From positions 61,532 through 125,531 of the forward strand of contig DAOQUL010000001.1 of assembly GCA_035341015.1 (NCBI GenBank): 64,000 nt of DNA, read 5' to 3'. This DNA comes from Anaerolineales bacterium (GTDB taxonomy: Bacteria; Chloroflexota; Anaerolineae; Anaerolineales; UBA4823). Made by a program: the position numbers and the translations under genes. Numbering within the stretch: position 1 is the stretch's first letter; each line of letters opens with the position of its first letter. Positions 44,306 to 58,982 of the stretch are shown here, in pieces. The notes below the pieces were generated by a model that had not been told where the DNA came from, searched no databases, and saw nothing but the letters and a program-made list of their open reading frames with translations.

Positions 44306-45007
44306 TTAGCCTGAGTAGAGAATGCGCCCACACGTGGGGCAGCGAACGATCTGATCTGGAACCTGGGCCGACTGCGCCAGGGCAGGTGTGAGCGTGGTGC
44401 CACACGCGCCACAAGTGCGGTTGGCAATACGAGCCACAGCAACACCCCGGCGTGACTGCCGCAGCTGTTCGTACAGCGCAACATCTTGTGGTGACAGCGG
44501 GGCTACTGCAGCCTGGCGTTCGATCTCCAGGCGTTCTAGTTGTTCGTGCAGGGATATTTGCTCGCCGCGCAGTTGGGCTTGTTGCTGCACCAGGCTTGCC
44601 TGTACGCCTTTAACTGCATCGTCTGTTTTTTTGTATTCGGCCTCTGCTTCTTCGACCACCAGCATGGCTTCAAGCTGCCGATCTTCGAGTACACCGAGGT
44701 ATTTTTTGAGAGCGGCAATTTCCTTTTGTAGATCTTGTAACTCTTTTGGGTTTTGGACTTTGCCACCATACAAAGCAGCCTCGCTCTGTCCGATCTTGAT
44801 CCTTTGCCCGCTGACCTCATTCTCTGCAAGGTCCAGCTTTTTGCGTTCTCCATTAAGAAAAGCCTCGGCAGTGGCGTTGGTTTGAAGAGCCTGTTTCAAA
44901 ACCGCATCTTCGCTCAATGCAGCTTGTATTTCTTGGAGGCGGTTCTTAACCTGGTCAAGATGGCTGTCGATTTGTTGAAGACGGAATAGAGTTGATAATT
45001 GGCTCAT
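44306..45007 (-). CDS. coiled-coil protein with C-terminal C4 zinc ribbon (COG1579-like)
   Basis: ~190 aa of heptad-rich sequence are followed by CGACG...VRCPTCGRILY. It lies 24 nt upstream of the NACHT gene. Confidence 0.75.
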   Translation of the reverse strand: MSQLSTLFRLQQIDSHLDQVKNRLQEIQAALSEDAVLKQALQTNATAEAFLNGERKKLDLAENEVSGQRIKIGQSEAALYGGKVQNPKELQDLQKEIAALKKYLGVLEDRQLEAMLVVEEAEAEYKKTDDAVKGVQASLVQQQAQLRGEQISLHEQLERLEIERQAAVAPLSPQDVALYEQLRQSRRGVAVARIANRTCGACGTTLTPALAQSAQVPDQIVRCPTCGRILYSG

Positions 45008-45119
45008 GTTGAGATTATAGAGGCGGTTGCCTCAGATGGCAAGGGAAAAGCTTAACAAATTCCACTTTGCAATTTAGACAAGTCGCGCCCAAATTGTAGT
45101 TCAATTGGTATAATTAATT

Positions 45120-45620
45120 ATGCCTTATCGGAATTTGCTGTGGGTTGTATTTTGTTTGACAGCCACATGTGCTGTTGTATTGGGATTTTTTGGCTGGCGC
45201 AACCGCAACCAGGCAAATGTAATTGTTGAGTGGCGCACAGCCAGCGAGCTGGATACGGTTGGGTTCAACCTGTACCGCAGCACAAATTCTGAGGGCGATT
45301 ATGAACAAGTGAATGATGCCATCATCCCTGCTTCACCTGATCCTTGGGCTGGAGGAGAGTACTCGTATGTTGACGAAGAAGTCCAAGGTGGGGTGATTTA
45401 TTATTATCTGTTGGAGGATGTTGCTTTAGATGGCAGTGTCAGTCGTCATGGCCCGATCGAGATCGAGGCGCAGGCGGGCGGCAAACTGGAACTTTTGCTG
45501 GCAGCGGTCTTCATCCTGGTTGCAGGCGCAGGGATACTGGCACTCGTTTTTCCCAAGAAAACATCCCCTCGTGCCGAGTTGGTCATTGAAGGCATGCAAG
45601 ATGGGCGAACAGAGAGATGA
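45120..45620 (+). CDS. bitopic membrane protein: N-TM, YYY beta-sandwich module, C-TM (paralog family A)
   Basis: Extended -10 TGGTATAAT (45106-45114) lies 5 nt before the ATG. The module reads VEWRTASELDTVGFNLYRS...YSYVDEEVQGGVIYYYLLEDVALDGS. The C-terminal TM is LLLAAVFILVAGAGILALVF. The 3' end overlaps the sigma-factor start by 20 nt. Confidence 0.6.
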   Translation: MPYRNLLWVVFCLTATCAVVLGFFGWRNRNQANVIVEWRTASELDTVGFNLYRSTNSEGDYEQVNDAIIPASPDPWAGGEYSYVDEEVQGGVIYYYLLEDVALDGSVSRHGPIEIEAQAGGKLELLLAAVFILVAGAGILALVFPKKTSPRAELVIEGMQDGRTER

Positions 45621-46251
45621 CGAGCAGGTTCTGGGCCAAACGATATTCTCCGGCAGTTCTGTAGACCGAGGAGACCAACGGTTTGGTTCTGCCAGTGAAG
45701 CCCAACTGCTTATTTCTATTATTACAGGCGACGAACATGCTTTCACAGAGCTTTATCGTCGTTATAGCCAGGGTTTGTACAACTACCTTTTGCGTCTCAT
45801 GGGCGATCCTTCAGGTGCAGAGGATGTTTTACAGGAGGTCTTCCTGGTGGTTTGGCAAACAGCAGACAGCTATCGGGGGGGGGCAAGTGTCAAAACATGG
45901 ATCTACCGCATCGGTCATCACAGGGCTGTTTCTTGGCTGCGACAACATCGCAGGGCAGTTGCCTATGATGAAAGTACCGTCTTTTTGAGCGAGGCTGAAC
46001 CGGAACAAGGGCGAGATAACGCCTGGCAAGACGATGATATCCAAAAGGCATTAGGGAGATTGTCTCCTAAACATCGCGCTGTGCTGGAGTTGGCGTTTGT
46101 GCAAGATCTATCGTACCAGGAAATAGCGCATGTTTTAAACATACCGTTGGGCACGATCAAGAGCCGGATGAGCTATGCGCTGCGGGCAATTGGAGGAATT
46201 TTGAAAGGCAAGAAGACGCCAGATCAGATCAAAGGTCAGGCGGAGGGATGA
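45601..46251 (+). CDS. ECF-family RNA polymerase sigma factor
   Basis: Region 2 reads FTELYRRY...DVLQEVFLVVWQ...TWIYRIGHHRAVSWLR. Region 4 reads LSPKHRAVLELAFVQDLSYQEIAHVLNIPLGTIKSRMSYA. Confidence 0.85.
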   Translation: MGEQRDDEQVLGQTIFSGSSVDRGDQRFGSASEAQLLISIITGDEHAFTELYRRYSQGLYNYLLRLMGDPSGAEDVLQEVFLVVWQTADSYRGGASVKTWIYRIGHHRAVSWLRQHRRAVAYDESTVFLSEAEPEQGRDNAWQDDDIQKALGRLSPKHRAVLELAFVQDLSYQEIAHVLNIPLGTIKSRMSYALRAIGGILKGKKTPDQIKGQAEG

Positions 46252-46832
46252 TGGCTAGAGAGAAAGAACCGGTACCAAGCGATCTTGATATGCAAGATTG
46301 GAAACAAGTCCGCGATGCGGTTGTGCATCAACCGATTTCTGCTCCTTCGCCGGATATTGAGAAGCGGTTGTTGGAAACGATCCGCAGCCGGCACCAAATG
46401 GCCTATCCACAAATGCACCTGTATGCCTTGGGTGCGACGCTGATCATCTTTGTTCTTTTATGGTTTGTTGTTCGTCCAGGTGTGGCCTTGCGGTGGTTGG
46501 CGCGGGGCGAAGACATCTCTGTTTTTCGCATCTATCGTTCAGTAAGCGGTGCTGAAGATTATCAATTACTGGGTGAAGTGCCCGCGGGCGCAGATGTGCT
46601 ATATGAGTATGTCGATATGCGTTTGTTACCTTGGGAGACCTATACTTATCTTGTGGAAGGGGTGCCGGGCAATGCCTCGCCGGTAGTGAGCCAGGCGGTG
46701 ACTAGCAATGCATTAGAGGCTCTGCCGGCTCAATTGATGCTTCTGGTGGCCAGCATCCTGATGGGTTATGGGTGTGTCTTGTTATTCAAGGTTTTGCAAG
46801 TTGCCAGGCTGCGATCTTTATACGGTGCTTGA
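46248..46832 (+). CDS. putative anti-sigma factor with extracytoplasmic YYY beta-sandwich module and second C-terminal TM
   Basis: ATGA-coupled to the sigma gene. A ~65-aa cytoplasmic N-domain is followed by a TM (LYALGATLIIFVLLWFVV) and the module LRWLARGEDISVFRIYRS...YEYVDMRLLPWETYTYLVEG. The C-terminal TM follows. No zf-HC2 motif is visible, so the anti-sigma call is positional. Confidence 0.5.
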   Translation: MMAREKEPVPSDLDMQDWKQVRDAVVHQPISAPSPDIEKRLLETIRSRHQMAYPQMHLYALGATLIIFVLLWFVVRPGVALRWLARGEDISVFRIYRSVSGAEDYQLLGEVPAGADVLYEYVDMRLLPWETYTYLVEGVPGNASPVVSQAVTSNALEALPAQLMLLVASILMGYGCVLLFKVLQVARLRSLYGA

Positions 46833-46869
46833 AATTTTATTTTGAGACTTATTTGTATTTAGAGGAATT

Positions 46870-49800
46870 ATGATCATCAGAAGGATTGTTCATCTGGTTT
46901 GTGCATTGGGTATGATAGGCGGCATGCTTCCTGGTGGGGCGACTGCTGCTGTGGATGCGCCTACCGGCGAGCAACCTGGCATGGAGATTTTACACTCTGA
47001 CTCTGCTGGGTTATTGGTCGAGCTGAGCGTCCCGAATTACACTGTCCAACAGAAAATGGTTGATGGTTTGACGTACGAGCAACTAGAGGTGCCTGGCTAT
47101 TCCTTGATCACCGAGTCGGGGGTTCCGCAGTTGCCGGTCAAAGGTTTGATGATTGGCGTGCCGGCAGGGGCAGAAGTGCAGATCAATATCCTGGAAGACG
47201 ATGCAGTGGGGCTTGCCGGTCAATTCAACCTGGCTGCTGCTCCTTATCCGGTACCTCTGGAAGACGAGACCGATACAGGGAGTTACGCTTATCTGCCGGG
47301 TATTCCTTTTGAACATGCGGGCGAGTATTATCCGCAATCCCCTATTTATGTCGGTGAGGATGGCTGGGTGCGCGACCAACGCGTTGCCCGCCTGGTGTTC
47401 TCTCCTTTTCAATATCAATCTAATGCAGGGTCTTTAATTTGGCACCGCAGGGTGTTGGTAGAAATCAACTTCATCGAGGGTATTGCTGCATCATTGACGG
47501 GCAGCGATTTGCCTGCGGCAGATCAAGCCGGTTTGTACGATCCAATTCTGCGGGGCGCATTGTTGAATTATGACGCGGCCCAGGCCTGGCGATCGATGCC
47601 GGAGATTGTTGGTGTGCACACCACCAGTGTCGAGGGGGAGCGGGTAAAAATCCAGGTCGATGAGGATGGCATTTACAAAGTCACCTATGAGGACTTGGCG
47701 ACGGCGGGGTGGAATCCGTCAACTATCGACCCTGCTACATTGAGCCTTTCAAGCCAGGGTGAGAATGTTGCGATTTCAATTGTAGGTGAGGTCGACGGCA
47801 GCTTTGACCCGGGTGATTACATCCTTTTTTACGGAGAAGAATTCCGCGGTGAGCGAATGGCGGCCTGGTATGCAGATGAAGATGACCATTGGTTGACATA
47901 TCTTCAGCAGCGCTCAGATGGCACAACCGCGTTATGGCACCCAGAGTTCACCCCCAAGATGTTGGAGTTGTACACCAGTATCAATGTATATTGGCTGTGG
48001 GTTGATCCGGTTGGCGAGCCGCTGCGCATGGCGGTTGAAGATGCCACGCCAGTCTCATCGCTTGTTCAAGATACCTACCAGGCCACTGCCAGGGCTGAAC
48101 GCAATCTCGAATATTGGGAATTCCATTTTACAGATGAGGACCCCTGGTTTTGGGAATATATTGAGAGTAATTCTGTAGGTACCTATCCCATAACGGTTAC
48201 TGGCCTGCCCGCAGCACCTGCGAACGTCACAATACGAGGCGAGTTGGTTTCGTGGAGTTCAAACGATAATGCCGGGCCTGACCACCATACGGTGATTGAA
48301 ATCAATACAACTTCTGTAGATGAAGCCTATTGGGACGGCATCAGCCGCTATCATTTTGAAGCGACGGTTTCAAGCTCAGCGTTGGTTGAGGGAATAAACT
48401 TAATCAAGTATCACAGTGTGGGTGATACGGTTGTCTATCCTCAGATGCTTGTGGATTGGTTTGAGATCATTTATGATCGCTGTTTTCTGGCGGTCAACGA
48501 TGAGCTGATGTTCTCGGGCGACGAGGCGGGCACCTGGCAGTACCAGGTTACCGGGTTGGCCAGCTCAACAGTCCAGGTATTGGATATTATCTCTCCGCTG
48601 CAGCCGGTGGTCCTTTCAAATGCGGTTGTTACTGCCGATGGGGGCGGATACCGGGTGGCTTTTGACGCTGAGCGCCCGGCGGGAGCCCAATTTTACCTGG
48701 CGGGTGATGGAGCCCTGAAAAGCCCGTTATCGGTGTCTGTGTACAATCCCCCTGATTTGCGTTCGTCTGGCAACCAGGCCGATTATATTATTATCACGCA
48801 CCCTGACTTCCTGGCTGCCTCACAGGTCCTGGCGAATTACCGTTCTGAGCAGATGTTGCAAACATTGGTTGTCAATGTTGAGGATATCTATAATGAGTTT
48901 GGGGAGGGGATTTTTCACTCGCAGGCGATCAAAAACTTTCTGGAATATACATTTTCGAATTGGCAGCCGCCGGCGCCGTCTTATGTGGTACTGATCGGGG
49001 ATGGACATTGGAACATGCACGGGTGGAGGCCGGCCGATTATGGCACGGCACCGGTGTTCATGCCGCCCAACCTGGAATGGGTGGACCCCTGGCACGGCCT
49101 GGTGGATACGACCACTTCTTTAGCCAATGTTGTTGGGCCCGACTCGCTGCCTGATCTAGAAATTGGACGCATCCCGGTTAACACGGTTGCAGAGTTCCAG
49201 GCGGTGATCAACAAGATTGAGACTTTTGAAACCTCAACTCCTGAAGAATGGCAGTTGCACAATTTGTTCATTGCAGATAATACGCCTGATTACGCCGGGA
49301 ATTTCCCGGCATTGGCAAACGCGATCATCAGCGATTACCAGGAACCAGGTTTTACGATGGACAAAATTTACCTGGATGATTTTATGGATACAGGCACGTG
49401 TGGAACGCCGCTTTGGCGAGGATCACAGTGCCCGAATGCCACCCAGGCGATAAAAGATAAGCTCGACACAACCGGGGCTCAAATCGTCAATTATATTGGG
49501 CATGCATCATATACATTATGGACCAATGAGCGTGTCTTCTCGTATCGAGCTTCCAGCCCATATTACAACGATGTTGCCGACCTGGATAACGGCGATCGCT
49601 TGCCGGTCGTCCTGGCATGGACATGCCTGGAGGGTTTTTGGTTCCACCCGGTTGAACAGCCGAGCATGGCTGAATTGTTCTTGCGTACTGATGGGCGAGG
49701 GGCTGTGGCTACCTTCTCACCGACAGGCCTGGGGGTTGCCAACGGACACGATGCTTTGCAGCGCGGCTTTTACGATGCGGTTTACGAATATGGGGTGTGG

Positions 49801-52518
49801 ACTTTGGGGCCGGCAGTCTCGAATGCCCGCTTGAGACTCTTTGGGGAGGCTGGCAATCACCCTCTGATCTACACTTATTTATTGTTTGGAGACCCGGCCT
49901 TAAAGTTATTGAGCCCTTATGGACTGGAAGCATCCCCCAGCGAGGCTCACCAGACGGGTCCAACAGATGCGGTGATTGACTATACCCTGAGCCTGACCAA
50001 CACCGGGATGATTACCGATACGTATGATCTATCGGTGTCTGGCAACACCTGGGTGACCAACTTGCCTTACGGGTCTGTCACGCTGGCGGCAGGTGAAAAC
50101 CGGACCCTCACCGTGCAAGTGCAAATTCCTGCCGGTGTCTCCAAAGGCAGTACGGACACAGCGGTGATCCAAATACAATCAAGGGGCGATCAGGAAGCAG
50201 CCTTTGAAACACATCTGGTGACCACAGCGGATGTATGGGTGGTGGTCAGCCCCACAACGGCTAATGCCATTGATTTGCCGGGCGCCGTAGTGACGTACAA
50301 TTTCCAGGCCACCAACACAAGCGATCAAAGCCGTTCTTTCAACCTGGCCTTGGGCGCTTACACCTGGTTCACTCAATTGGAGAAGACTGTGATTGGCCCG
50401 CTGGCCCCAGGGGCAAGCGCTAATTTTTGGGTGCGCGTCAATATCCCTGCGGGCGCTGCAGATTATGACTTTGACGCGACGACGGTTACCCTGGCATCGC
50501 AGACGGATGCCAGGTACCGGGCGGTTGCGAACATCACGACGACCGCGAGAACCTATGGGGTGAGTATTTCTCCTGCCTCTCAAAACATTGAGGGGGCTGT
50601 GGGAACAGTGGAGCGTTATTGGCTGCAAATTGCCAATACGGGTGGGTACCCGGATACGTATGATCTGTCGACTGCCAGCGCGCTGGGCTGGGTGGTGACG
50701 CCGTCTGTGAATACAGTTGGTCCCTTGGCGGTGGGGGGAACTACCGGCTTATGGGTGGATGTACGGATCCCTCCAGGCATCCCTGGCGGCACAATCGATA
50801 CAACCCTGGTCCAGGCCCAATCGCAAGCCGACCAAGATGTGGCAGCACAGGCGAGCCTGGTGACTACGGCACGGGTATATGGAGTTGAAGTCAGCCCAAC
50901 TAATGCCAGCGTTACTGGTTTGCCGGGTGCTGTGGTGACGTACAATTTCCAGGTCACCAACACAGGCGGCCAAAGCGATTCGTTCGACCTGGCCTTGGGT
51001 GCTTATACCTGGCCTACCCAGTTGGAGAAGACTGTGATTGGCCCTCTGTCCCCGGGGGCAAGTGCCAACTTTTGGGTGCGCGTCAGCATCCCTGCGGGCG
51101 TTGCAGATTATGACCTTGACGCGACGACGCTCGCCCTGGCATCGCAGAAAGACGCCAGGTTCGGGGCGGTTGCGAGTATGACGACGACCGCAAGGACTTA
51201 TGGGGTGAGCATATCTCCAGCGTCTCAAAATGGTAAAGGTCTGACAGATACCGTCGAACGATACTGGCTGCAAATTGCCAATACGGGTGGGTACCCAGAT
51301 ACGTATGATCTGTCGGCTGCCAGCGCGCTGGGCTGGGTGGTGACGCCGTCTGTGAATACAGTTGGTCCTTTGGCGGTGGGGGGAACTACCGGCTTATGGG
51401 TGGATGTGCAGATCCCCTCGGGTATTCCTGGCGGCACGATCGATACAGCACGGGTTCAGGCCCGATCGCAGGCGGATCAAAATGTGGCAGCACAGGCAAG
51501 CTTGATCACGTTGGCGAATGTGTATGGACTTGAGCTTGATCCACCTGTTGCCAGCGCAGTTGGCTTGCCGGGCACAACGGTAACTTACACCTTCCAGGTC
51601 ACCAATACAAGCAACTTAAGCGATGCGTTCGATTTGACAGTTGGCGAGCATGAATGGTTCACCCTGCCGGAAATGGTTTTGATTGGCCCAATTGAACCGG
51701 GGGTGAGTATCGATTTCACTGTGCGTGTCGATATCCCTGTGAGCGCTGCTGACTATGATTTCGATAGCACCGTAATAACCCTGACATCGCATACAGACGC
51801 CAATCGCCAGGCAATTACCACTCTGACGACAACTGCTCGTACCTATGGGGTGGATGTTGCGCCAGTTTCTCAAAGCAAGGCTGGTACGGCAGGGACGGTT
51901 GTGCGGTATTGGCTGCAAGTCATTAACACTGGCGGGTATCCAGATACCTTTAATATCTCGGTTCTAAGCACACAGGGCTGGGATGTGACGCCTGGTGCAA
52001 TTGCGATTGGTCCCTTGGCGGCAGGCGAAACTGCACAAGTGTGGATTGATGCTGAAATTCCGGGTGATGTATCGGGCGGAACCGAAGACGCGGCGCGGGT
52101 TGATATTGTTTCAGAGGGTGATGGCGCTAAAAGCACTGCTGCTTTGTTATATACGACCGCCAATGTTTATGGCTTGAATGTAACGACATCGATGCCATCC
52201 CAGAGTGCTTTTCCTGGTTCGGTCATCACCTATACACTGCAAGTCACCAATCTGGCGAATATCAGTGATACTTTTTCTGTGACACTGGGATCTTACCAAT
52301 GGGAGACTTCCTTATCGCATTCGAGCCTGTCGTTGTTGGCGGGCGAAGCGGGGCAAATTGAAGTGTATGTAACGGTGCCCAATGGAAGCAGGTTGGGTGA
52401 TCTGGATGCGGTGAGCGTTCGCCTGGTGTCGCAGGGCGATCCGATGAAGAGTGCTCAACTAACCCTGGCATCATCTACTTTGGAAGCGCGTATTTTCTTG
52501 CCAATTACGATGAGATAA
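46870..52518 (+). CDS. giant secreted C25 (gingipain-family) cysteine peptidase with propeptide-like N-terminus and ~8 C-terminal Ig-like (CARDB/NEW3-type) modules
   Basis: 1882 aa with a signal peptide. The C25 core reads ADYIIITHPDF...YVVLIGDGH, with catalytic His in NYIGHAS (49501-49503) and Cys in LAWTCLEG (49624-49626). The C-terminal modules carry T(Y/F)xxQ(V/A)TNT...D(T/S)(Y/F)(D/N)L(S/A) motifs. Confidence 0.85.
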   Translation: MIIRRIVHLVCALGMIGGMLPGGATAAVDAPTGEQPGMEILHSDSAGLLVELSVPNYTVQQKMVDGLTYEQLEVPGYSLITESGVPQLPVKGLMIGVPAGAEVQINILEDDAVGLAGQFNLAAAPYPVPLEDETDTGSYAYLPGIPFEHAGEYYPQSPIYVGEDGWVRDQRVARLVFSPFQYQSNAGSLIWHRRVLVEINFIEGIAASLTGSDLPAADQAGLYDPILRGALLNYDAAQAWRSMPEIVGVHTTSVEGERVKIQVDEDGIYKVTYEDLATAGWNPSTIDPATLSLSSQGENVAISIVGEVDGSFDPGDYILFYGEEFRGERMAAWYADEDDHWLTYLQQRSDGTTALWHPEFTPKMLELYTSINVYWLWVDPVGEPLRMAVEDATPVSSLVQDTYQATARAERNLEYWEFHFTDEDPWFWEYIESNSVGTYPITVTGLPAAPANVTIRGELVSWSSNDNAGPDHHTVIEINTTSVDEAYWDGISRYHFEATVSSSALVEGINLIKYHSVGDTVVYPQMLVDWFEIIYDRCFLAVNDELMFSGDEAGTWQYQVTGLASSTVQVLDIISPLQPVVLSNAVVTADGGGYRVAFDAERPAGAQFYLAGDGALKSPLSVSVYNPPDLRSSGNQADYIIITHPDFLAASQVLANYRSEQMLQTLVVNVEDIYNEFGEGIFHSQAIKNFLEYTFSNWQPPAPSYVVLIGDGHWNMHGWRPADYGTAPVFMPPNLEWVDPWHGLVDTTTSLANVVGPDSLPDLEIGRIPVNTVAEFQAVINKIETFETSTPEEWQLHNLFIADNTPDYAGNFPALANAIISDYQEPGFTMDKIYLDDFMDTGTCGTPLWRGSQCPNATQAIKDKLDTTGAQIVNYIGHASYTLWTNERVFSYRASSPYYNDVADLDNGDRLPVVLAWTCLEGFWFHPVEQPSMAELFLRTDGRGAVATFSPTGLGVANGHDALQRGFYDAVYEYGVWTLGPAVSNARLRLFGEAGNHPLIYTYLLFGDPALKLLSPYGLEASPSEAHQTGPTDAVIDYTLSLTNTGMITDTYDLSVSGNTWVTNLPYGSVTLAAGENRTLTVQVQIPAGVSKGSTDTAVIQIQSRGDQEAAFETHLVTTADVWVVVSPTTANAIDLPGAVVTYNFQATNTSDQSRSFNLALGAYTWFTQLEKTVIGPLAPGASANFWVRVNIPAGAADYDFDATTVTLASQTDARYRAVANITTTARTYGVSISPASQNIEGAVGTVERYWLQIANTGGYPDTYDLSTASALGWVVTPSVNTVGPLAVGGTTGLWVDVRIPPGIPGGTIDTTLVQAQSQADQDVAAQASLVTTARVYGVEVSPTNASVTGLPGAVVTYNFQVTNTGGQSDSFDLALGAYTWPTQLEKTVIGPLSPGASANFWVRVSIPAGVADYDLDATTLALASQKDARFGAVASMTTTARTYGVSISPASQNGKGLTDTVERYWLQIANTGGYPDTYDLSAASALGWVVTPSVNTVGPLAVGGTTGLWVDVQIPSGIPGGTIDTARVQARSQADQNVAAQASLITLANVYGLELDPPVASAVGLPGTTVTYTFQVTNTSNLSDAFDLTVGEHEWFTLPEMVLIGPIEPGVSIDFTVRVDIPVSAADYDFDSTVITLTSHTDANRQAITTLTTTARTYGVDVAPVSQSKAGTAGTVVRYWLQVINTGGYPDTFNISVLSTQGWDVTPGAIAIGPLAAGETAQVWIDAEIPGDVSGGTEDAARVDIVSEGDGAKSTAALLYTTANVYGLNVTTSMPSQSAFPGSVITYTLQVTNLANISDTFSVTLGSYQWETSLSHSSLSLLAGEAGQIEVYVTVPNGSRLGDLDAVSVRLVSQGDPMKSAQLTLASSTLEARIFLPITMR
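50230..52164 (+). repeat. 3 x 645-nt in-frame tandem repeat (each encodes two Ig-like modules) inside the giant C25 gene
   Basis: The units start at about 50230, 50875 and 51520. Units 1 and 2 are highly similar. A 140-nt core (50623-50762 vs 51268-51407) differs at only 3 positions by my reading. Unit 3 is more diverged. A half unit follows, to about 52480. Confidence 0.85.
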
Positions 52519-52577
52519 GAGAATCTTCGTAATCCTATCGGGCTGGTAATGGAAGTGCTAGTATAATCAGGCTCTGA

Positions 52578-53444
52578 GTGGAAATTATGAGGCGCTGGTT
52601 TCGGGTTGTTATTTTCGGTGTATTCCTTTTGCTGTTGGCTGCGACCAATCTATCGGCGCAGGCGGCGGTAGACCTGCTCTATTTTTACGCGCATGGTCAG
52701 GCAGATCGGATCAACCTGGAATGGGAAACAGCCCAAGAACTCAATCATGCTGGGTTTTATATTCAGCGCAGCCTGGAGGCGTCATCGGGTTTTGCTCGTA
52801 TCAGCAATTTCATTCCTCCACTAGGGTTTGGGGTGGGCGGGCATTATTATACATACGATGACCTGACTGCTGAACCAGGGGTAACGTATTATTACAAGTT
52901 GGAGAGCGTGGATACGGGAGGAAATTCTGAGCTGACAGAGGCGGTATCGGCTGCGATTCAGAGCAATACGTTGACACCAACCGTTACCCCGACTGGATCG
53001 ACCCCTACCCCTACGCTGACACTTACCTTGGCCCCCCCTACAGAGACGCTGACACGGACGCCTACATCGGCTGTGGCTGCAACGAAAACGCCTACCCGGT
53101 CACCTACCGTGGCAGTTCTTTATCCAACCTCAACACCCAAGCACAGCTTGACGCCGGTGGTTCCTACGCCTACGATAACCATCACGCCCACCCCTACGCG
53201 TACCCCTACAACGACGTTGTTACCATTGCCAGAGTTGGCCTTGCTTTTCCCCGCGTCGACCTCAACACTCAGTCCGACGCCCACTAGGCTTCCAACGCTA
53301 ACGCATACTCCTGTGCCTGATGGGCAGGTCGAAAATGGGATCCGTCTATCGCCGCGAGTGATTTTGCTGATCGCAGTGGTGGCTTTATTATGGCTTCTTT
53401 TGGGCGGATTCATTATTCTGTATTCTCGTTATGTTGGGCGCTGA
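52578..53444 (+). CDS. cell-surface protein: signal peptide, YYY beta-sandwich module, ~120-aa Pro/Thr linker, C-terminal TM plus basic tail (paralog family A)
   Basis: The module reads LEWETAQELNHAGFYIQRS...YTYDDLTAEPGVTYYYKLESVDTGGN. The PT linker spans about 52965-53320. The C-terminus is VILLIAVVALLWLLLGGFIILYSRYVGR. GTG at 52578; an alternative ATG lies at 52587. Confidence 0.65.
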   Translation: MEIMRRWFRVVIFGVFLLLLAATNLSAQAAVDLLYFYAHGQADRINLEWETAQELNHAGFYIQRSLEASSGFARISNFIPPLGFGVGGHYYTYDDLTAEPGVTYYYKLESVDTGGNSELTEAVSAAIQSNTLTPTVTPTGSTPTPTLTLTLAPPTETLTRTPTSAVAATKTPTRSPTVAVLYPTSTPKHSLTPVVPTPTITITPTPTRTPTTTLLPLPELALLFPASTSTLSPTPTRLPTLTHTPVPDGQVENGIRLSPRVILLIAVVALLWLLLGGFIILYSRYVGR

Positions 53445-53476
53445 TTAATCCTTTGTGGTACGGCAAACAGGTGCAT

Positions 53477-55642
53477 ATGGTCAAGCACTGTTCTTCATGG
53501 ATCCAACCAGCCAGGTTCGTGCTAATTGTGTTTTTCGCTGCCTTTGGGGGCCTGTGCAGCGCCTGCGGCCGCGCCTCGCAGGAGGTTGTCCCAACGGCAG
53601 CCGTTCTAGTGCCAGGGGAACGCGGGGCCTTGAAGCTTTACGTGGCTCAGGAAGGTATTTACCGGCTAAGACAAGCTGAGCTAGACTATCTTGGATTTAA
53701 CCTGGATCCTGTGGACCCCATGCGTTTTGAGTTGTCTCTTCGTGGGGCAGCGCAGCCTTTGTGGGTGCTTCAAGACGATGGCGAATTCACGTTGTTCTTT
53801 TATGGCATTGGCAGTGACAGCTTATACAGCCGAGAGGCTGTGTATTGGCTTGACCTTCTTCCTGAGCCGGCAGCGTTGACTCAGGCATGGAATGCAGAAG
53901 AGATTGCCGCACCCGGTGCGGCGGGGGCCCAATCGACTTACCAGGCTGCCATCCACCAAGAAGAGAACTTACTTTATTACCCCCAATCTACCCAAGATGA
54001 GCATTGGTATTGGGCGGCTGTTTATCCTGGGGTGCAGCAGGAATTTTCGATTGAATTGGCGGATGTGGCTGATGGTCCTGGGTATCTTCAAGTTGATGTA
54101 TGGGCAAATACTGAAGATGGTGTTTCGCCGGATCACCATACGCTTGTGAGCGTTAACGAGCAAGTGGTGATTGATGAGACCTGGGATGGGATTGGTCAGC
54201 ATACCCTGGAGGTTGAACTGCCGGCTGGCTTACTGGTGGAAGGCAATAACAAGGTGCGGGTGGAGTTGCCGGGCGACACAGGGGCCTCGGCCGAAGCGGT
54301 TCTGGTAAACTGGATCGCGTTTGATTATGCGCGAGTAGCACTCGCCGAGGATGATGCCTTGGTGTTTGACAGCGCCGGGTACGTTTTGTCGATCGATGGG
54401 ATGAAGGGTGCGCTGGCTGTTTTTGACATCACGCAAGCCAACCAGGCACAAATGCTGGGCAGCATGCGCTCGGACGGGCAGGTGAATTTCCAGGGCCAGG
54501 CTGAACAGCGCTATTTGATCGTTGGGCGGGATGGTTACCTTCAACCCACCCGCATGTCGGCAGCGGAGTTGTCGCCGGACCTGAGAACAGAGAGCCAGGG
54601 AGCTGAATACGTAGCGGTGGGTTCCGCCAACCTATTAGAGGCGTTGAAACCCATGCTGGAGTGGCGAACAAGCCAGGGTGTGAGCAGCCTGGCAGTGCCG
54701 TTAGAGGCGATCTACGATCAGTTCGGTGATGGCTTCCCTGAGCCGGAGGCAGTTCGTGTGTTTTTGCAGTATGCGGCCAGTCATTGGGAAACATCCCCCA
54801 AGTATGTGCTGTTGGTGGGCGATGCGACATTTGATCCGCTTGGATACCAGTCAGAGCCAGGAACCAATCTGCTGCCCACCTATTTTGTGCAAACATTTTA
54901 TGGGGGCCAAACCGCCAGCGATTTGATGTTTGCGCTTTTGGATGACGATGAGCTGCCTGACCTGGCGATTGGGCGAGTGCCGGTGCAGACCCAAGAACAA
55001 CTTGGTATTTTTGTGGAGAAGACGCTGGCTTATGAACAGAACGCTTCAGAGGCGGGTCTGGGTGATGTTTTGGCTGTGGCTGATGGGCAAGAGGCAAGTT
55101 TTAGGGGGGATGCACAGGCTTTTTTGGATTTGTTTGTGGGTCAAGAAACGGTCTTGTATGCCCCGGATGCGGGCAGCCAGGGTGCCAGCGACGCAATCAC
55201 CACTTATCTAGAGCAAGGATTTGGCCTGGTGGCCTATTTTGGGCATGGCAGTGTGAACATGTGGGGCAAGGACCGGCTGTTCACGGTAGAAGATGTGTCG
55301 GGCCTGTCGAATGAACATCTGCCGATTATGATCCATATGACTTGCTTGAATGGGCTCTTTACACACCCCAAGATGGTGTCTCTGGCTGAGGCACTGCTGC
55401 TGCAGCCGGGGGGAGGCGCAATAGCAGTATTGGCCCCCACCAGCCTGACCTTACCATTGGATCAGAGTTTTCTTAGCCAGCCGCTGGGGAGCAGCATTCT
55501 TGATCCATCGATTACCCGACTGGGGGATGCTTTGCTGCATGCTCAACGGCAGATCCCGGTAGATGGTGTGGGGACACAAGATGTTATTCGCACCTTTTTG
55601 CTGTTCGGCGACCCTGCGCTGCTTTTAGCTGGCAAGCCCTGA
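53477..55642 (+). CDS. C25 (gingipain-family) cysteine peptidase, second copy
   Basis: 721 aa with a signal peptide. It reads GIYRLRQAELDYLGF...FTLFFYG (as in the giant paralog) and AEYVAVGS...YVLLVGDATFDP. His is in YFGHGS (55244-55246) and Cys in HMTCLNG (55343-55345). The track ORF from 53390 is over-extended. Confidence 0.8.
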   Translation: MVKHCSSWIQPARFVLIVFFAAFGGLCSACGRASQEVVPTAAVLVPGERGALKLYVAQEGIYRLRQAELDYLGFNLDPVDPMRFELSLRGAAQPLWVLQDDGEFTLFFYGIGSDSLYSREAVYWLDLLPEPAALTQAWNAEEIAAPGAAGAQSTYQAAIHQEENLLYYPQSTQDEHWYWAAVYPGVQQEFSIELADVADGPGYLQVDVWANTEDGVSPDHHTLVSVNEQVVIDETWDGIGQHTLEVELPAGLLVEGNNKVRVELPGDTGASAEAVLVNWIAFDYARVALAEDDALVFDSAGYVLSIDGMKGALAVFDITQANQAQMLGSMRSDGQVNFQGQAEQRYLIVGRDGYLQPTRMSAAELSPDLRTESQGAEYVAVGSANLLEALKPMLEWRTSQGVSSLAVPLEAIYDQFGDGFPEPEAVRVFLQYAASHWETSPKYVLLVGDATFDPLGYQSEPGTNLLPTYFVQTFYGGQTASDLMFALLDDDELPDLAIGRVPVQTQEQLGIFVEKTLAYEQNASEAGLGDVLAVADGQEASFRGDAQAFLDLFVGQETVLYAPDAGSQGASDAITTYLEQGFGLVAYFGHGSVNMWGKDRLFTVEDVSGLSNEHLPIMIHMTCLNGLFTHPKMVSLAEALLLQPGGGAIAVLAPTSLTLPLDQSFLSQPLGSSILDPSITRLGDALLHAQRQIPVDGVGTQDVIRTFLLFGDPALLLAGKP

Positions 55643-57517
55643 TCAATAGTGGGTCAGGCTGCCATCCTGGCGGGCGCGCCGCACGGCAAACCTAAAACTG
55701 GCCAGGCTGATTGGAAGCAATATGGCGCTGAAGGCCAATAGAGCCAGGGTTTGGTTCCCCAGGTTGTTTATGGCTGCCCCATTAAGAATGGCTTGCCTGA
55801 GCCCATCCAAGGCGTATGTTACCGGTATCAGACCGGCGGCCAACTGAAGCCAGGCAGGCAAGATGGTAACCGGGTAATAGACCCCGCCCAACAGGGTAGC
55901 GACCGAGTCGAAAATCCAGGTTACCGGTTGGCCGCGCTTGAGCACCATGATAAAGCTGGCGGCTATCACGCCCAGGCTGCTGAACGAGATAATGGTTAAC
56001 ATCAGCAATACCAAGACACTGATCAGGTTCGTCTGCGAGAGATCTACACCAAGCAGCATGTCCCCGATGCCCAAATAAATCAAGGCTCTGAAAGTGGTCA
56101 TCAAGTAGCTCCACAGTGATGAGGCAAAAATGATGGCCGAGATTGATGTAGGGGTGGTCAGCATGGCTTCAAGGGTGCCTGTTGTTTGAGCCAGGCGCAA
56201 GCTGGATGTGAAGCTTGTCAACCCGGTGCCGAAATAGCCTGAAACTGCCAGGCCGATGAGTACGAAGGCAAAATAATCGCCCTGGTAACTGGACAAGAAA
56301 GGCACTGCTGCTGAGCCGATCAACTGCGCAATGAAGTAGAAAGCCAGGATCGATATGAAGATGCTGAAAAACTGAAAAAAGAAAGCAAAGCGATAGCTGA
56401 GCTCTTCGGCAAAATCGCGCCGGATAAATGCAGCGATGACACGCGCGGTTTGCCTGAGGTCGAATTTACGCCTGGGGGAAGTGGTGAGGGGCGCGGGAAG
56501 CGGATCCTGATCGAGAGGTTCGGTTTGTTGATGGGTATGCTGTCGTTGGGTGAGGCGGCTGAAGATCTTGTCAAGAGAGGCTTCAGAAGATGTGATGTTG
56601 AGAATCCGGCCGCCCTGGTCTTGAAGATTTTCGAGAACCGTGCACAGGGTATTTGGCGCAGGTGTGTCGAACTGGATTTCGGCAGTTTGATCTTCTTTTG
56701 TTGAGATGACAAGCTGATCGAGCCCGTTGAGCTGGGCTTGCAGGGCGGGTGACCAGTGGCGAACCTGGATGGTATGGCGGCCAACCATGTTGAGCTGACC
56801 ACGCAGTTCTTGTACTGTGCCACAGCCTTGAACACGCCCGTGATGCATAATGGCTACCCGATCGCACAGGCGCTCTACATCGGTAAGGCTGTGCGTGGTC
56901 AACAGGATGGTGATCCCTTGCTGGCTGGTGAGTTGGCGGACCAAAGTGTAAAGCTGCTGCGTCGCAGACCAGTCTAACCCTTTGGTGGGCTCATCTAAAA
57001 ACAGCAACTGGGGTTGAACCAACAAGGCTCGAGCAAGCGAAAGACGCTGGCGCATGCCGGTGGAGTAGGTCTGAAAACGAGAGTCAATGAATTCTTGTAG
57101 ACCAACCTGTTCGCTGACCTGTGTGATGCGTTCATTGATGGTCGTGGTCGGGAGGCCAGAAAGGGCAGCAAAGAATTCCAGGTTGTGGCGCCCCGTCAGC
57201 CGCCAGTAAAAACTGCGTTCATCGCTCGTCACCAGGCCGATCGATTGTTTGACGGCCGCGTCATTGTCCAGGTCATAGCCGTTGACCAGGGCAGTTCCAG
57301 AGGAGGGGATGATCAGGGTTGACAGCAGTTTGACCAGGGTGGTTTTCCCGGCTCCATTTGGCCCAATCAGCCCAAACAGCTCGCCTGATTTCACCTGAAG
57401 CGTAACCTGGTCTACAGCCAGGTGTTGAGAGACCTGGCTGCCAGGCAGCAAAGCGCGCCAACCTTGTGTAGATGGGAAGGCTTTCGAAAGGTGGTGGGTT
57501 TGAATGGCGTAAGTCAC
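55643..57517 (-). CDS. fused ABC transporter: N-terminal ATPase plus C-terminal ABC-2-type permease
   Basis: Has GPNGAGKTT, YSTGMRQRLSLARAL (signature variant) and LLFLDEPTKGLD. A ~60-aa linker is followed by six TM helices. Confidence 0.85.
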   Translation of the reverse strand: MTYAIQTHHLSKAFPSTQGWRALLPGSQVSQHLAVDQVTLQVKSGELFGLIGPNGAGKTTLVKLLSTLIIPSSGTALVNGYDLDNDAAVKQSIGLVTSDERSFYWRLTGRHNLEFFAALSGLPTTTINERITQVSEQVGLQEFIDSRFQTYSTGMRQRLSLARALLVQPQLLFLDEPTKGLDWSATQQLYTLVRQLTSQQGITILLTTHSLTDVERLCDRVAIMHHGRVQGCGTVQELRGQLNMVGRHTIQVRHWSPALQAQLNGLDQLVISTKEDQTAEIQFDTPAPNTLCTVLENLQDQGGRILNITSSEASLDKIFSRLTQRQHTHQQTEPLDQDPLPAPLTTSPRRKFDLRQTARVIAAFIRRDFAEELSYRFAFFFQFFSIFISILAFYFIAQLIGSAAVPFLSSYQGDYFAFVLIGLAVSGYFGTGLTSFTSSLRLAQTTGTLEAMLTTPTSISAIIFASSLWSYLMTTFRALIYLGIGDMLLGVDLSQTNLISVLVLLMLTIISFSSLGVIAASFIMVLKRGQPVTWIFDSVATLLGGVYYPVTILPAWLQLAAGLIPVTYALDGLRQAILNGAAINNLGNQTLALLAFSAILLPISLASFRFAVRRARQDGSLTHY

Positions 57518-57634
57518 GGCGCGATCATCTCTTTAGGTCCGAATTGACTGGGTAATCTCGCAGACCCTATTATAGTTGTAAATCGGCTCGAAGACCCTTA
57601 TGATTGCAAGTTTGTTTTGTGCCGGATTGGATGC

Positions 57635-57663
57635 TTGCGCGGCGGTGGGTTGTTGCTTATAAT
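57635..57663 (+). promoter_or_regulatory. sigma70-type promoter: TTGCGC-17 nt-TATAAT upstream of the first zinc-ribbon gene
   Basis: -35 at 57635-57640, -10 at 57658-57663, ATG at 57680. This implies a very short leader with no SD. Confidence 0.5.
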
Positions 57664-57679
57664 CAGGCCAGGTGACCCT

Positions 57680-58963
57680 ATGAATAAAACATTCCCTCCG
57701 CCCGGTTATATATCAACCGAGTCGCTGGTGACGGGTATTGAAGTTTATAAACCTGCACCGGTCAAGATTGAAGATGAACGAGAAACGGTTGAATTCAAGT
57801 GTCCACAGTGTGGCGCTACTACCGCCTACAGCGTGGTTGATGGCGGCCTGACCTGCACCCATTGCGGTTATTATGACGCGCCGCAAAAGCCGGTGGTGGG
57901 CAAGCAGGCCGGTGAGATGGAATTCACCCCGCAGGCACTGGCGCAGGCGTCATTGGGGTGGGGTGAAGAACGCAAAGAATTGGAGTGCCAGAGCTGCGGG
58001 GCAAGGACTCTGGTGCCTTCTGAATCTTTGGCCCATACCTGCGTTTTTTGCGGTTCAAATAAAGTGATCCAACGCATGGCGTCTCAAGATAATCTCCGGC
58101 CGCGTTTTTTGATCCCGTTCAAAGTGGCGATGGAAAAATGCCAGGGCATTACACGCCAATGGCTGGGATCGAGCTGGATGACGCCTGCCAGCTTGAAGCA
58201 GGTGGCCGGGCTAAATGCCTTTGCGGCTGTTTACCTGCCATTTTGGACCTTTGATTCGACCACAGACGCCAATTGGCGGGCAGAGGTGGGGCATCAAGAA
58301 ACCGAAAGTTACTATGATGCCGGCGATAAAGAATGGAAAACGCGCACCGTCACAGTTTGGCGCTGGGAATCGGGCAAAGTGCAGTTGAAGATTGACGACC
58401 TGCTGGTCGGTGGCACTGCCAAGCTCAGCACGATCCTGTTGGACAAGATCAAGTCCTTTAATTTGAACGAGCTGGTGGATTACGATCCGAAATACCTGGC
58501 CGGTTTCCACGCCCGTGCTTATGACTTGCCTCTGGAAAAGGCCTGGGAGATCGCCAGGCAGCAAATGCGCGAGGCCACGCGCAATGCCTGCCGCGAACAG
58601 GCCAGCACCTCACAGATCCGCAGCTTCAGCATGAACCTGGATTTTAGCGATGAAACCTGGCGCTATGTACTGCTGCCGACTTATGTGGCGGCATATCGCT
58701 ATGAGGAGAAAATTTTTCAGGTGATCATTAACGGCCAGACTGGCGAAATCACGGGGCAACGACCCGTGGATTGGGCAAAGGTGTGGCTGGCAATTGCGGC
58801 ACTTTTGGCGCCCGGATTGTTATTGGGCTTGATCGGCCTGGTTACGCTGCCCTTGGGCGGCCTGGGCGTGATCATTGGTGGGATTGGTTTTGTGTTATTG
58901 GTGGCTGGTATTGTGATTGCGATCATAATTGGGGTACAAGCCAACCGAATGGGTGAGGCGTGA
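57680..58963 (+). CDS. double zinc-ribbon protein with conserved central domain and C-terminal TM hairpin (unknown function), paralog 1
   Basis: Has CPQCG..x16..CTHCG and CQSCG..x17..CVFCG, then a central YLPFWTFD... region, then ...YRYEEKIFQVIINGQTGEITGQRP, and two C-terminal TM helices. Confidence 0.7.
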   Translation: MNKTFPPPGYISTESLVTGIEVYKPAPVKIEDERETVEFKCPQCGATTAYSVVDGGLTCTHCGYYDAPQKPVVGKQAGEMEFTPQALAQASLGWGEERKELECQSCGARTLVPSESLAHTCVFCGSNKVIQRMASQDNLRPRFLIPFKVAMEKCQGITRQWLGSSWMTPASLKQVAGLNAFAAVYLPFWTFDSTTDANWRAEVGHQETESYYDAGDKEWKTRTVTVWRWESGKVQLKIDDLLVGGTAKLSTILLDKIKSFNLNELVDYDPKYLAGFHARAYDLPLEKAWEIARQQMREATRNACREQASTSQIRSFSMNLDFSDETWRYVLLPTYVAAYRYEEKIFQVIINGQTGEITGQRPVDWAKVWLAIAALLAPGLLLGLIGLVTLPLGGLGVIIGGIGFVLLVAGIVIAIIIGVQANRMGEA

Positions 58964-58982
58964 GGAACAGGGAGCGGCGAAC

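Follow-up and report, generated by a model that had tools for sequence, protein, structure and literature searches.

PorU, the family C25 peptidase of the secretion system known as type IX (T9SS), is a C-terminal signal peptidase that removes a C-terminal signal from secreted cargo proteins and attaches the cargo in a sortase-like manner (PMC4560394). The T9SS itself has been described in Bacteroidetes only (PMC5445135). In other bacteria, anti-sigma factors of the RsgI type respond to polysaccharides outside the cell and thereby control the genes of the cellulosome (PMC10328401, PMC6852018). Chloroflexota are considered to be monoderm: genes for the machinery that assembles beta-barrels (BAM) or for lipopolysaccharide (LPS) are absent, and the envelope is multilayered and of unknown composition (PMC13319060). 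Its layers comprise an inner layer, a shared outer layer and a protein layer, with no known assembly machinery (PMC13319060). In this study we analyzed a locus of six co-directional genes (g1 to g6, positions 45120-55642 in the table of open reading frames, ORFs) within a stretch of 64,000 nucleotides from an Anaerolineales bacterium (contig DAOQUL010000001.1), referred to as the window in what follows. The locus encodes two C25 peptidases (g4 and g6, representing the types C25L and C25S, respectively), an extracytoplasmic function (ECF) sigma factor followed by a candidate anti-sigma factor (g2 and g3), and three membrane-anchored proteins that have one module in common (g1, g3 and g5).

We found that the locus is a copy of a conserved but undescribed cassette of filamentous Chloroflexota (class Anaerolineae). 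To our knowledge, the only role described for C25 enzymes of the PorU type is that of attachment sortase in the T9SS of Bacteroidota, a system which needs an outer membrane. What is new here is the occurrence of PorU-like C25 enzymes with dedicated fibronectin type III (Fn3) partners outside the T9SS. Literature searches on C25 and PorU outside Bacteroidota and on sorting signals of Chloroflexota returned no description of the cassette, in agreement with a first-pass annotation, made from the sequence alone, which knew of no described system with such an architecture.

A conserved cassette of Chloroflexota

A species-level genome collection was scanned four times, using g6, g1, g3 and an alignment of C25S as anchors, and the loci retrieved were compared ORF by ORF. 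The cassette was present in dozens of metagenome-assembled genomes (MAGs) of Chloroflexota from several orders, and its gene order was kept over protein identities of 35-45%. Usually it begins with g1, a gene for an HprK-related P-loop protein, the ECF sigma factor and Fn3 anti-sigma factor (where present) and C25L, and continues with an S26B-like peptidase, a PqqD-like protein, g5, C25S and a convergent ABC-2 exporter. Most of the related loci belonged to the class Anaerolineae (Anaerolineales, Thermoflexales, Ardenticatenales, Caldilineales, and Promineifilaceae), together with a few bins that carried other phylum labels. The closest one came from an uncultured Anaerolineaceae bacterium, and the best 80 matches were all MAGs, with no isolate among them.

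The six genes had been proposed to form a unit, and the joint occurrence of module and C25 genes across Chloroflexota bears this out. In the set anchored on C25S, 56 of the 59 loci with enough upstream sequence have a g5-type gene immediately next to C25S, and C25L is found upstream of C25S in 42/46 loci. In the sets anchored on g6 and g1, four of the five apparent exceptions for g5 were recognized on inspection as loci with a divergent g5. The order g1, C25L, C25S was observed in 22 loci from the first two scans. The stop codon of g5 and the start of C25S, as well as the stop codon of g1 and the start of the HprK-related gene, in many cases overlap or are separated by a few bases, which suggests that the members of each pair work together. 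An ABC gene lies at most 2.5 kb downstream of C25S in 19 of 47 loci, and other loci have it at a different place in the cassette. The ABC-2 exporter recurs as a neighbour and may belong to the system.

Three standard members of the cassette were absent from the window in tblastn searches, and its closest relative (locus L001) lacks them as well. These are, with equivalents in most cassettes, the HprK-related gene (L007:2948-3817; HprK_rel_B 1e-7, ScmC 3e-6), whose start overlaps or abuts the stop of g1, the gene for a homolog of S26B-like peptidases of the Ser/His, SipW/archaeal type (L007:8038-8565; TIGR02228 1e-14), which lacks an N-terminal transmembrane (TM) helix, and the PqqD-family gene between C25L and g5 (L010:8618-8896; lasso_PqqD 3.5e-12, ScmD 1.6e-11). 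The scores of the HprK-like and PqqD-like proteins are far below the curated cutoffs. The window and L001 are therefore reduced versions of the cassette, in which these three genes have been lost and g1 overlaps the sigma factor gene directly. L001 is 77% identical to the window locus, with protein identities of 74-87%, and the ratio of nonsynonymous to synonymous substitutions (dN/dS) between the two is 0.13-0.20 for each of g1-g6. All six are thus under purifying selection, which identifies them as real, functional genes.

Two PorU-like C25 peptidases

By their Pfam matches, g4 and g6 are members of peptidase family C25 (MEROPS C25 / PF01364). The protein encoded by g4 starts with a signal peptide and a Propeptide_C25 domain (E 3e-14, 53 bits versus a cutoff of 22), followed by a PorU-like N-domain that separates the pro-domain from the Peptidase_C25 catalytic domain (E 4e-74, 250.7 bits versus a cutoff of 23). 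The remainder consists of Ig-like modules with Pfam matches of the FixG_C, NEW3, CARDB, and DUF11 types. This is the build that had been read from the sequence: a gingipain-propeptide-like N-terminus, a C25 core and about eight Ig-like modules. C25L orthologs range from 902 to 1882 aa and vary in the number of Ig-like repeats. The shorter g6 protein matches Peptidase_C25 over residues 378-716 (E 7e-73, 246.5 bits versus a cutoff of 23) and carries no pro-domain. The residues proposed as its catalytic dyad, H590 and C623, align to His211/Cys244 of RgpB and to PorU (chain 6za2), and those of g4, H878 and C919, align to the same PorU motifs (GHG.. and ..TC.), so both assignments held in alignment. 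The His and the Cys of the dyad are invariant in 15 C25S orthologs.

Both peptidases are nearer to PorU than to the gingipains, judging from the PorU-specific N-terminal region and the catalytic domain. The best PDB sequence match of g6 is PorU (6za2, 1.8e-12), ahead of RgpB (1e-9); for g4, PorU was the only significant match in the PDB search and none was obtained to RgpB. Likewise, the NCBIfam model of PorU (NF033707) is the best family match for both. The T9SS sorting domain Por_Secre_tail was found in neither g4 nor g6 at E <= 0.1 in Pfam; lacking this C-terminal domain (CTD), they fall outside the gingipains proper. The closeness to PorU, like the lipobox and the C-terminal tail described below, was beyond the reach of the first-pass annotation. 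In addition, g6 contains a near-canonical lipobox (LCSAC), and many C25S orthologs have a canonical one of the form L-x-[GAS]-C (e.g., VLASC, LLAGC, LLAAC, and FLVGC). These motifs predict g6 to be a lipoprotein, probably tethered to the membrane.

A C-terminal tail common to C25L and other exoenzymes

The last 15 residues of g4 end in …TLEARIFLPITMR, and its extreme C-terminus conforms to a short motif (Table 1) that recurs at the end of 38/56 distinct C25L ORFs, a count that is a lower bound because some of these ORFs are cut by contig ends. The same tail was found on unrelated secreted enzymes encoded beside g1 genes, namely an S8 subtilase (1623 aa), a family (~1065 aa) that combines M23, PPC and Ig domains, as well as a nuclease (LTD, Exo_endo_phos, DUF11). 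Tail-bearing loci include L041:2932-7803, L042:937-4140(-), L022:3948-7820(-), and L025:6120-9722(-). A regular expression for the tail matched 40 of 1822 ORFs, as compared to 1.2 expected from random truncation points. Among ORFs of at least 300 aa, 30 of 259 within 3 kb of a g1 gene carried the tail versus 3 of 349 elsewhere (odds ratio 15, p 3.5e-9). Within the window it is present on g4 only. The last 99 aa of g4 matched none of the NCBIfam sorting models, apart from a match at 0.008 to an S-layer model. As a candidate signal for sorting or docking, the C25L tail, which the first-pass annotation did not notice, ranks above the stalk, TM helix and tail of g5.

A second type of ending was noticed near g1 genes: G.F.F.L[VT][PA]G plus one to three residues, placed after a "YYY.V.AVN" stretch that by eye resembles Fn3 (L074:12902-16117, L071:10368-13025(-), L069:8636-11977, and L084:13393-15909). 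Its carriers are an alpha-amylase, an LTD/Exo_endo_phos protein and two unannotated proteins, and no NCBIfam model covers this ending.

Membrane-tethered Fn3 proteins

The homology of the modules of g1, g3 and g5 was established by pairwise BLASTP (g1-g5 1e-11, g1-g3 2e-7, g3-g5 6e-4). A profile of the module searched against the six-frame translation of the window retrieved exactly these three ORFs (E 3e-37, 8e-34, and 2e-22), with no further copy at E <= 10, which agrees with the earlier proposal of one module common to three proteins of the locus. Scans of the three against Pfam and NCBIfam gave no match, and they belong to no characterized family. AlphaFold2 predicted g1 with a mean predicted local distance difference test (pLDDT) score of 93 as a TM helix (residues 2-30), a beta-sandwich (32-116) and a second TM helix (122-143), followed by a short amphipathic helix. 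For g5 it predicted a signal helix (2-23), the sandwich (32-127, pLDDT > 90), ~130 disordered residues rich in Pro and Thr, and a TM helix (259-287). This topology is the one that had been proposed for g5, but the proposed start is less likely than the ATG at 52587, which gives a protein of 285 aa, the length of the 98%-identical protein P0125.

Among compact Foldseek matches, the FnIII domains of Ihog, titin and fibronectin ranked best (E ~1e-3), and on the basis of these models the module is a divergent Fn3 beta-sandwich. The Pfam fn3 domain is recognized in distant relatives (L110, 7.8e-9; and P0235), not in the proteins of the window. Beyond the aromatic residues of the core, the modules of g1, g3 and g5 show little or no variation at four charged residues (E, R, D, E). 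This exceeds what maintenance of the fold needs and is compatible with a common binding site.

The g1 family (TM-Fn3-TM, ~150-166 aa) obtained 432 word-indexed matches, all unnamed and without a Pfam domain, and assigned to Chloroflexota wherever labelled. An exhaustive search with g5 showed that more than 130 of the top 150 representatives at 50% identity are full-length g5-like proteins. That the module is unique to the cassette was considered and rejected, since large proteins of other phyla contain it too, either in repeated form or as their C-terminal domain. What appears to be specific to Chloroflexota, from sequence comparison, is the small membrane-tethered forms of the module. In other phyla the same Fn3 subtype was seen C-terminally, or nearly so, in large secreted proteins (L081:7634-10339, L092:7769-10258, L109:8528-10552, and P0235); in one case (P0235) a T9SS Por_Secre_tail comes after it, in another (L109) FlgD_ig.

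Orthologs of g5 possess a stalk motif (PLPxITLxFP), kept in ~10/15 aligned sequences and missing in one sub-branch, as well as a semi-conserved GW..PG stretch, a conserved TM helix (W..LLG.WF) and a basic tail. The first-pass annotation had likened the stalk, TM helix and basic tail of g5 to a sorting signal. The tripartite resemblance stands, but g5 matched none of the curated sorting-domain models (LPXTG, PEP-CTERM, PGF-CTERM, GlyGly-CTERM, MYXO-CTERM, and others in NCBIfam), and its motif is ~35 residues away from the TM helix. No comparable motif was seen in g1 or g3.

Genes of the g1 type are not specific to C25 loci. Among 45 g1-type loci with at least 6 kb of downstream sequence, 23 had a C25 gene, 21 an adjacent HprK-like gene and 15 neither. 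Elsewhere g1-type genes adjoin S8 or M23 peptidases, nucleases, alpha-amylase, or sortase, DUF4012 and DUF11 genes. In loci lacking C25 (L084:9093-9941, L085:8125-9708, L083:3210-3971, and similar ones), the g1-type gene is often located directly 3' of a sortase gene or of a DUF11 gene plus two DUF4012 genes. This neighbourhood is another context of cell-surface assembly.

An optional pair of ECF sigma and anti-sigma factors

On the basis of its matches to Sigma70_r2 (2e-17) and Sigma70_r4 (2e-15) in Pfam and of a TIGR02937 (sigma70-ECF) score of 101.5 bits versus a cutoff of 42.9, g2 is an ECF (group IV) sigma factor, as had been called in the first pass. Its neighbour g3 was rightly described as occupying the anti-sigma position, coupled through ATGA and carrying the shared module: a cytoplasmic N-terminus of 57 aa is followed by a TM helix, the Fn3 module and a second TM helix. 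No anti-sigma family in Pfam or NCBIfam matched g3 itself. Its orthologs contain an N-terminal anti-sigma helix (LLPxYxxxxL…WL), and the ortholog in L009 gave weak matches to anti-sigma models (NF052375 4e-6, below cutoff; PRK13920 1e-4). By position and orthology, g3 is a candidate anti-sigma factor and sigma binder in which the domain itself has been shortened.

The pair of ECF sigma factor and Fn3 anti-sigma factor is present in ~6 of ~45 cassettes with visible upstream sequence; loci that have it are the window, L001, L009, L013, L022, L037, L079, L113, L117, L127, and L164. Among the 13 Chloroflexota loci anchored on g3, the g1-HprK pair is located just upstream in 11, C25L is the next gene in five, and a tail-bearing S8 peptidase comes before in two. 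Such pairs are almost confined to the cassette. This context, taken together with their presence in a minority of cassettes, indicates that the sigma pair belongs to the system but is optional. An organizing role of the pair for the system as a whole was rejected on the same grounds. Of the earlier proposal of an ECF-controlled system, the location of the pair inside the cassette, where present, stands, but organizing control by what is an optional insert does not. Boxes of the TATAAT type were found 5-10 nt before the starts of g1 and g5, which suggests leaderless transcripts or very short leaders and a promoter of housekeeping rather than ECF type. A scan of the locus for sigma-70 and terminator consensus sequences stayed at chance level.

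Feature coordinates and neighbouring genes

The ORF table, the Pfam and NCBIfam matches and the reading of individual codons place the six genes, their overlaps and domains and both His/Cys dyads where the first-pass annotation had put them (Table 1).

Table 1. Features of the locus and of its flanks (window positions; TM, transmembrane helix).
Feature	Position	Strand	Description
STAND NTPase gene	41612-44281	-	NACHT/HEAT-repeat protein, divergent upstream of g1
CdsZ-like gene	44306-45007	-	coiled-coil zinc-ribbon protein, divergent upstream of g1
Box TGGTATAAT	45106-45114	+	extended -10-like, 5 nt upstream of g1 ATG; read by eye
g1	45120-45620	+	166 aa; membrane hairpin with the Fn3 module between two TM, then a short amphipathic helix in the cytoplasm
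g2	45601-46251	+	216 aa; sigma factor of ECF type with no regions other than 2 and 4; 20-nt overlap with g1
g3	46248-46832	+	194 aa; Fn3-bearing anti-sigma candidate; ATGA overlap with g2, read directly
g4 (C25L)	46870-52518	+	1882 aa; Sec-secreted pro-C25 peptidase
g4 Propeptide_C25	46966-47577	+	residues 33-236
g4 Peptidase_C25	48784-49908	+	residues 639-1013
g4 H878	49501	+	CAT codon of dyad
g4 C919	49624	+	TGC codon of dyad
g4 Ig-like modules	~49927-52479	+	8 modules, ~107 aa each, from ~residue 1020
g4 C-terminal tail	52492-52515	+	IFLPITMR (…ARIFLPITMR); motif φ[FY][LF]Pφφx[RK]-COOH
Box TAGTATAAT	52559-52567	+	-10-like, upstream of g5; conserved in L001; read by eye
g5	52578-53444	+	288 aa; signal peptide, Fn3 module, Pro/Thr stalk, TM, basic tail
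g5 stalk motif LLPLPELALLFP	53217-53252	+	conserved, ~35 residues before TM
g5 TM segment	53355-53423	+	
g6 (C25S)	53477-55642	+	721 aa; PorU-like C25 peptidase, probable lipoprotein
g6 lipobox	53552-53566	+	LCSAC
g6 H590	55244	+	His codon of dyad
g6 C623	55343	+	Cys codon of dyad
ABC gene	55643-57517	-	624 aa; convergent fused ABC ATPase and ABC-2 permease; Pfam ABC_tran and ABC2_membrane
Zinc-ribbon/TM pair	57617-58963 and 58929-60101	+	paralogs, each with a zinc ribbon at the N-terminus and TM helices at the C-terminus
Alpha-2-macroglobulin gene	62075-63982	-	bacterial type (MG10, TED); runs off window end

Outside the locus, the annotated part of the window encodes housekeeping proteins (prolyl-tRNA synthetase (ProRS), ATP synthase, polyphosphate kinase, and D-Ala-D-Ala ligase), a GH10 protein and an L,D-transpeptidase. 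No T9SS genes (PorV, PorZ, PorQ, Sov, and PorK-N) were found among the annotated ORFs of the window, as had already been noted.

The genes on either side of the locus recur to some extent. The paralogous zinc-ribbon/TM pair downstream of the ABC gene has counterparts beside the cassettes of L001, L010/L148 and L127; L119 shows one of the two. Upstream of g1, L017 and L031 likewise have the pair of STAND NTPase and CdsZ-like protein, and L126 has the zinc-ribbon gene without its partner. The bacterial alpha-2-macroglobulin, a broad protease inhibitor, is encoded 6 kb from the locus.

Possible roles of the cassette

The reading that we favour, tentatively and with somewhat less than even confidence, is that of a surface system for the processing and retention of secreted hydrolases, which combines a g5/g6 complex, binding by Fn3 modules and sensing by the anti-sigma factor. 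The overlap or close spacing of the g5 stop and the C25S start in many loci suggests that g5 and C25S form a complex, which would act as the processing unit at the surface. It would mature C25L and other tail-bearing exoenzymes by removing the pro-domain, the tail or both and, by analogy with PorU, could possibly link them to an acceptor in the envelope. The three Fn3 proteins hold the same domain in different ways: flat on the membrane in g1, on a C-terminally anchored stalk in g5, and fused to an anti-sigma N-terminus in g3. The modules of g1 and g5 may serve as capture or retention elements for enzymes in a cell that has no outer membrane. The Fn3 domain of g3 would sense the same ligand and cause the release of the ECF sigma factor, so that expression is tuned following the logic of RsgI and SigI. 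The neighbouring ABC-2 exporter may supply a component of the envelope.

Several observations weigh against a processing and retention system of this kind. The scores of g4 and g6 against the PorU model NF033707 are 258 bits (model positions 4-735 of 1095) and 213 bits (106-733 of 1095), respectively, versus a cutoff of 420, and neither protein matches the last third of the model (~360 positions); with scores below the cutoff and this C-terminal third unmatched, they are PorU-like rather than PorU. About a third of the C25L orthologs have no tail, and about half of the g1-type genes have no C25 gene within 9 kb. Docking of the LPLP motif of g5 in cis on its own Fn3 domain is not predicted in the full-length AlphaFold2 model, in which the motif is disordered (pLDDT ~60); this model lends no support either for or against binding between Fn3 domain and motif. 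As regards regulation, g3 of the window (46248-46420) lacks the first helix of the anti-sigma domain, ~30 aa, that its orthologs have. The deletion is common to L001 and the close metagenomic relatives P0001 and P0002, the helix is present in orthologs down to 63% identity (P0003), and no remnant of it was found upstream in any frame. Enumeration of dyads (5-mer, N14-18, 4-mer) upstream of 15 ECF genes did not reveal an ECF-type promoter, as no dyad was shared by more than 4/15 sequences, a level also reached in shuffles (mean 3.7, maximum 5). Finally, the PqqD-like, HprK-like and S26B-like proteins have no evident signal peptide or N-terminal TM helix, are presumably cytoplasmic and are left unexplained by the model.

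The main rival to this favoured reading is an ordinary exoprotease operon for nutrient scavenging, which would involve no sorting or processing. In such an operon g4 and g6 would break down protein from the surroundings, with the Fn3 proteins as auxiliary adhesins or binders of substrate and the ECF pair as an unspecialized regulator that responds to envelope stress or to substrate. The build of g4 is that of a degradative enzyme, with a pro-domain, a catalytic domain and eight Ig-like repeats in a protein family of very variable length (902-1882 aa), the neighbours of g1 include S8, M23, nuclease and amylase genes, and a GH10 gene is present within the window. Nutritional hydrolases, on the other hand, tend towards variable gene content and gene order, and a fixed cassette of two peptidases with dedicated partners, kept over several orders at 35-45% identity, is unusual for them. 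C25S is PorU-like, predicted to be tethered to the membrane and devoid of substrate-binding repeats, the g5 gene often overlaps or abuts that of C25S, and a tail common to unrelated hydrolases points to a common handling step, so that we consider the scavenging operon somewhat unlikely. A different division of labour, the version of the first-pass annotation, in which the C25 peptidases act as sortases on the module proteins, strikes us as improbable. They would cut g5, and perhaps g1 and g3, near the C-terminal TM helix and release or attach the part with Fn3 domain and stalk, and a cut in g3 would amount to the site-1 step in the activation of the sigma factor. PorU does work in a sortase-like way (PMC4560394), g5 adjoins C25S, which is predicted to be membrane-anchored, and its PLPxITLxFP motif, GW..PG stretch, TM helix and basic tail resemble tripartite sorting signals. 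Nevertheless, g5 is not matched by known sorting-domain models, the motif is ~35 residues from the TM helix and missing in a sub-branch of orthologs, g1 and g3 have nothing comparable, and with one g5-type protein per cassette the enzymes would form a single-substrate system.

The position of a module gene before each peptidase gene (g1 and g3 before g4, g5 before g6) would also fit membrane-tethered inhibitors or immunity factors that shield the producer from the adjacent peptidase, with the anti-sigma copy reporting free protease. Precedents are the pairs of staphostatin and staphopain and of chagasin and its cysteine peptidase; chagasin has an Ig-like fold, and the module is a beta-sandwich of the Ig-like/Fn3 type. 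An alpha-2-macroglobulin gene located 6 kb away could be viewed in the same light. However, g4 carries a pro-domain of its own, and we regard shielding as very unlikely. As for a role of the module as an active-site inhibitor that is specific to C25, it was judged unlikely, since g1-type genes are also found ahead of genes for serine (S8) and metallo (M23) peptidases, nucleases and amylases, and in some loci ahead of no hydrolase gene. Least probable of all, in our view, is that the full cassette matures and exports a peptide of the kind made by ribosomes and modified after translation (RiPP) by means of its PqqD, HprK-like, S26B-like and ABC proteins, that the C25 and Fn3 proteins are extracellular finishing or receptor parts, and that the window is a remnant. 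PqqD-like, HprK-related and S26B-like genes are indeed standard in the cassette, and an ABC exporter is a recurrent neighbour. Homologs of HPr kinase phosphorylate the C-terminal Ser of lasso-peptide precursors (PMC8498205), and this homology hints at C-terminal peptide chemistry in the full cassette. Yet no gene for a precursor peptide, cyclase or radical-SAM enzyme was seen in the cassettes, the invariant core consists of C25 and Fn3 proteins, and in the window and L001, which lack the PqqD, HprK and S26B genes, the six remaining genes are under purifying selection.

The favoured system of processing and retention can be extended to a bolder proposal, which we hold to be unlikely in its entirety: monoderm filamentous Chloroflexota would have a sorting and retention system of their own, a counterpart of attachment by the T9SS, in which tail-bearing hydrolases are captured by membrane-tethered Fn3 receptors and processed, or linked to the envelope, by a PorU-like C25 enzyme of lipoprotein type, the anti-sigma factor reads the cargo load, and the HprK, PqqD, S26B and ABC-2 proteins are accessory to maturation and export. 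What lends the cassette its interest is that the PorU type of enzyme forms its invariant core in a phylum considered to be monoderm. If the cassette does handle tail-bearing exoenzymes, a new C-terminal signal would be defined, the way in which the abundant Anaerolineae of wastewater, sediment and soil keep degradative enzymes on their filaments would be explained, and a function would be assigned to three sizeable families of "hypothetical" proteins (g1, g5, and the Fn3 anti-sigma factors). Even under a more mundane reading, this is a cleanly delimited and widely conserved operon with pairs of enzymes and partners, and a rare case in which the sensor domain of an anti-sigma factor has paralogs among the structural proteins encoded beside it.

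Comparison with known systems

The relatives of the locus resemble cassettes of the HPr-rel-A/SynChlorMet type and lasso-peptide kinases in that both contain HprK-related and PqqD-family genes; they differ from SynChlorMet-type and lasso systems by having no radical-SAM, cyclase or precursor genes. With the RsgI/SigI systems of Clostridium thermocellum, g3 has in common an extracellular domain of a kind that is found in structural and enzymatic proteins of the regulated set, the logic being that a shared binding module serves as sensor (PMC10328401, PMC6852018). The sigma factors, on the other hand, belong to different families (ECF in the case of g2), and the anti-sigma fold is also different. 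The sensor of g3 is an Fn3 domain between two TM helices and, in contrast to RsgI, no autoproteolytic domain was recognized in it.

The systems of sortase/LPXTG, exosortase/PEP-CTERM, archaeosortase/PGF-CTERM and rhombosortase/GlyGly-CTERM are similar to the tail described here in that a short C-terminal signal is found on unrelated secreted proteins encoded beside candidate processing genes. A motif followed by a TM helix and a basic tail, as in g5, is likewise present in C-terminal sorting signals. Unlike known sorting signals, the g4-type tail is a free C-terminus with no TM helix or basic anchor after it, and the candidate enzyme is a C25 peptidase rather than a sortase, exosortase or rhomboid.

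Within family C25, the gingipains RgpB and Kgp and g4 are all composed of a pro-domain, a C25 catalytic domain and Ig-like modules. Gingipains end in the T9SS CTD, which g4 does not have, and the insert of g4 between pro-domain and catalytic domain is PorU-like. The closest counterpart is PorU (PG0026) itself, although it works in the T9SS of an outer membrane and the host phylum of the cassette is considered to be monoderm, without BAM or LPS (PMC13319060). PorU is anchored via PorV, whereas g6 is predicted to be anchored by its lipobox, and the cargo of PorU is recognized by a CTD of ~80 aa, as compared to a candidate signal of eight residues here. On the side of the similarities, PorU and g4/g6 belong to the same family, their His/Cys dyads align, and the PorU-specific N-terminal region is common to them. 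They are also alike in their location at the surface or membrane, which for g4 and g6 is predicted, and both PorU and the cassette are tied to secreted hydrolases with a common C-terminal signal, in the case of the cassette a candidate one.

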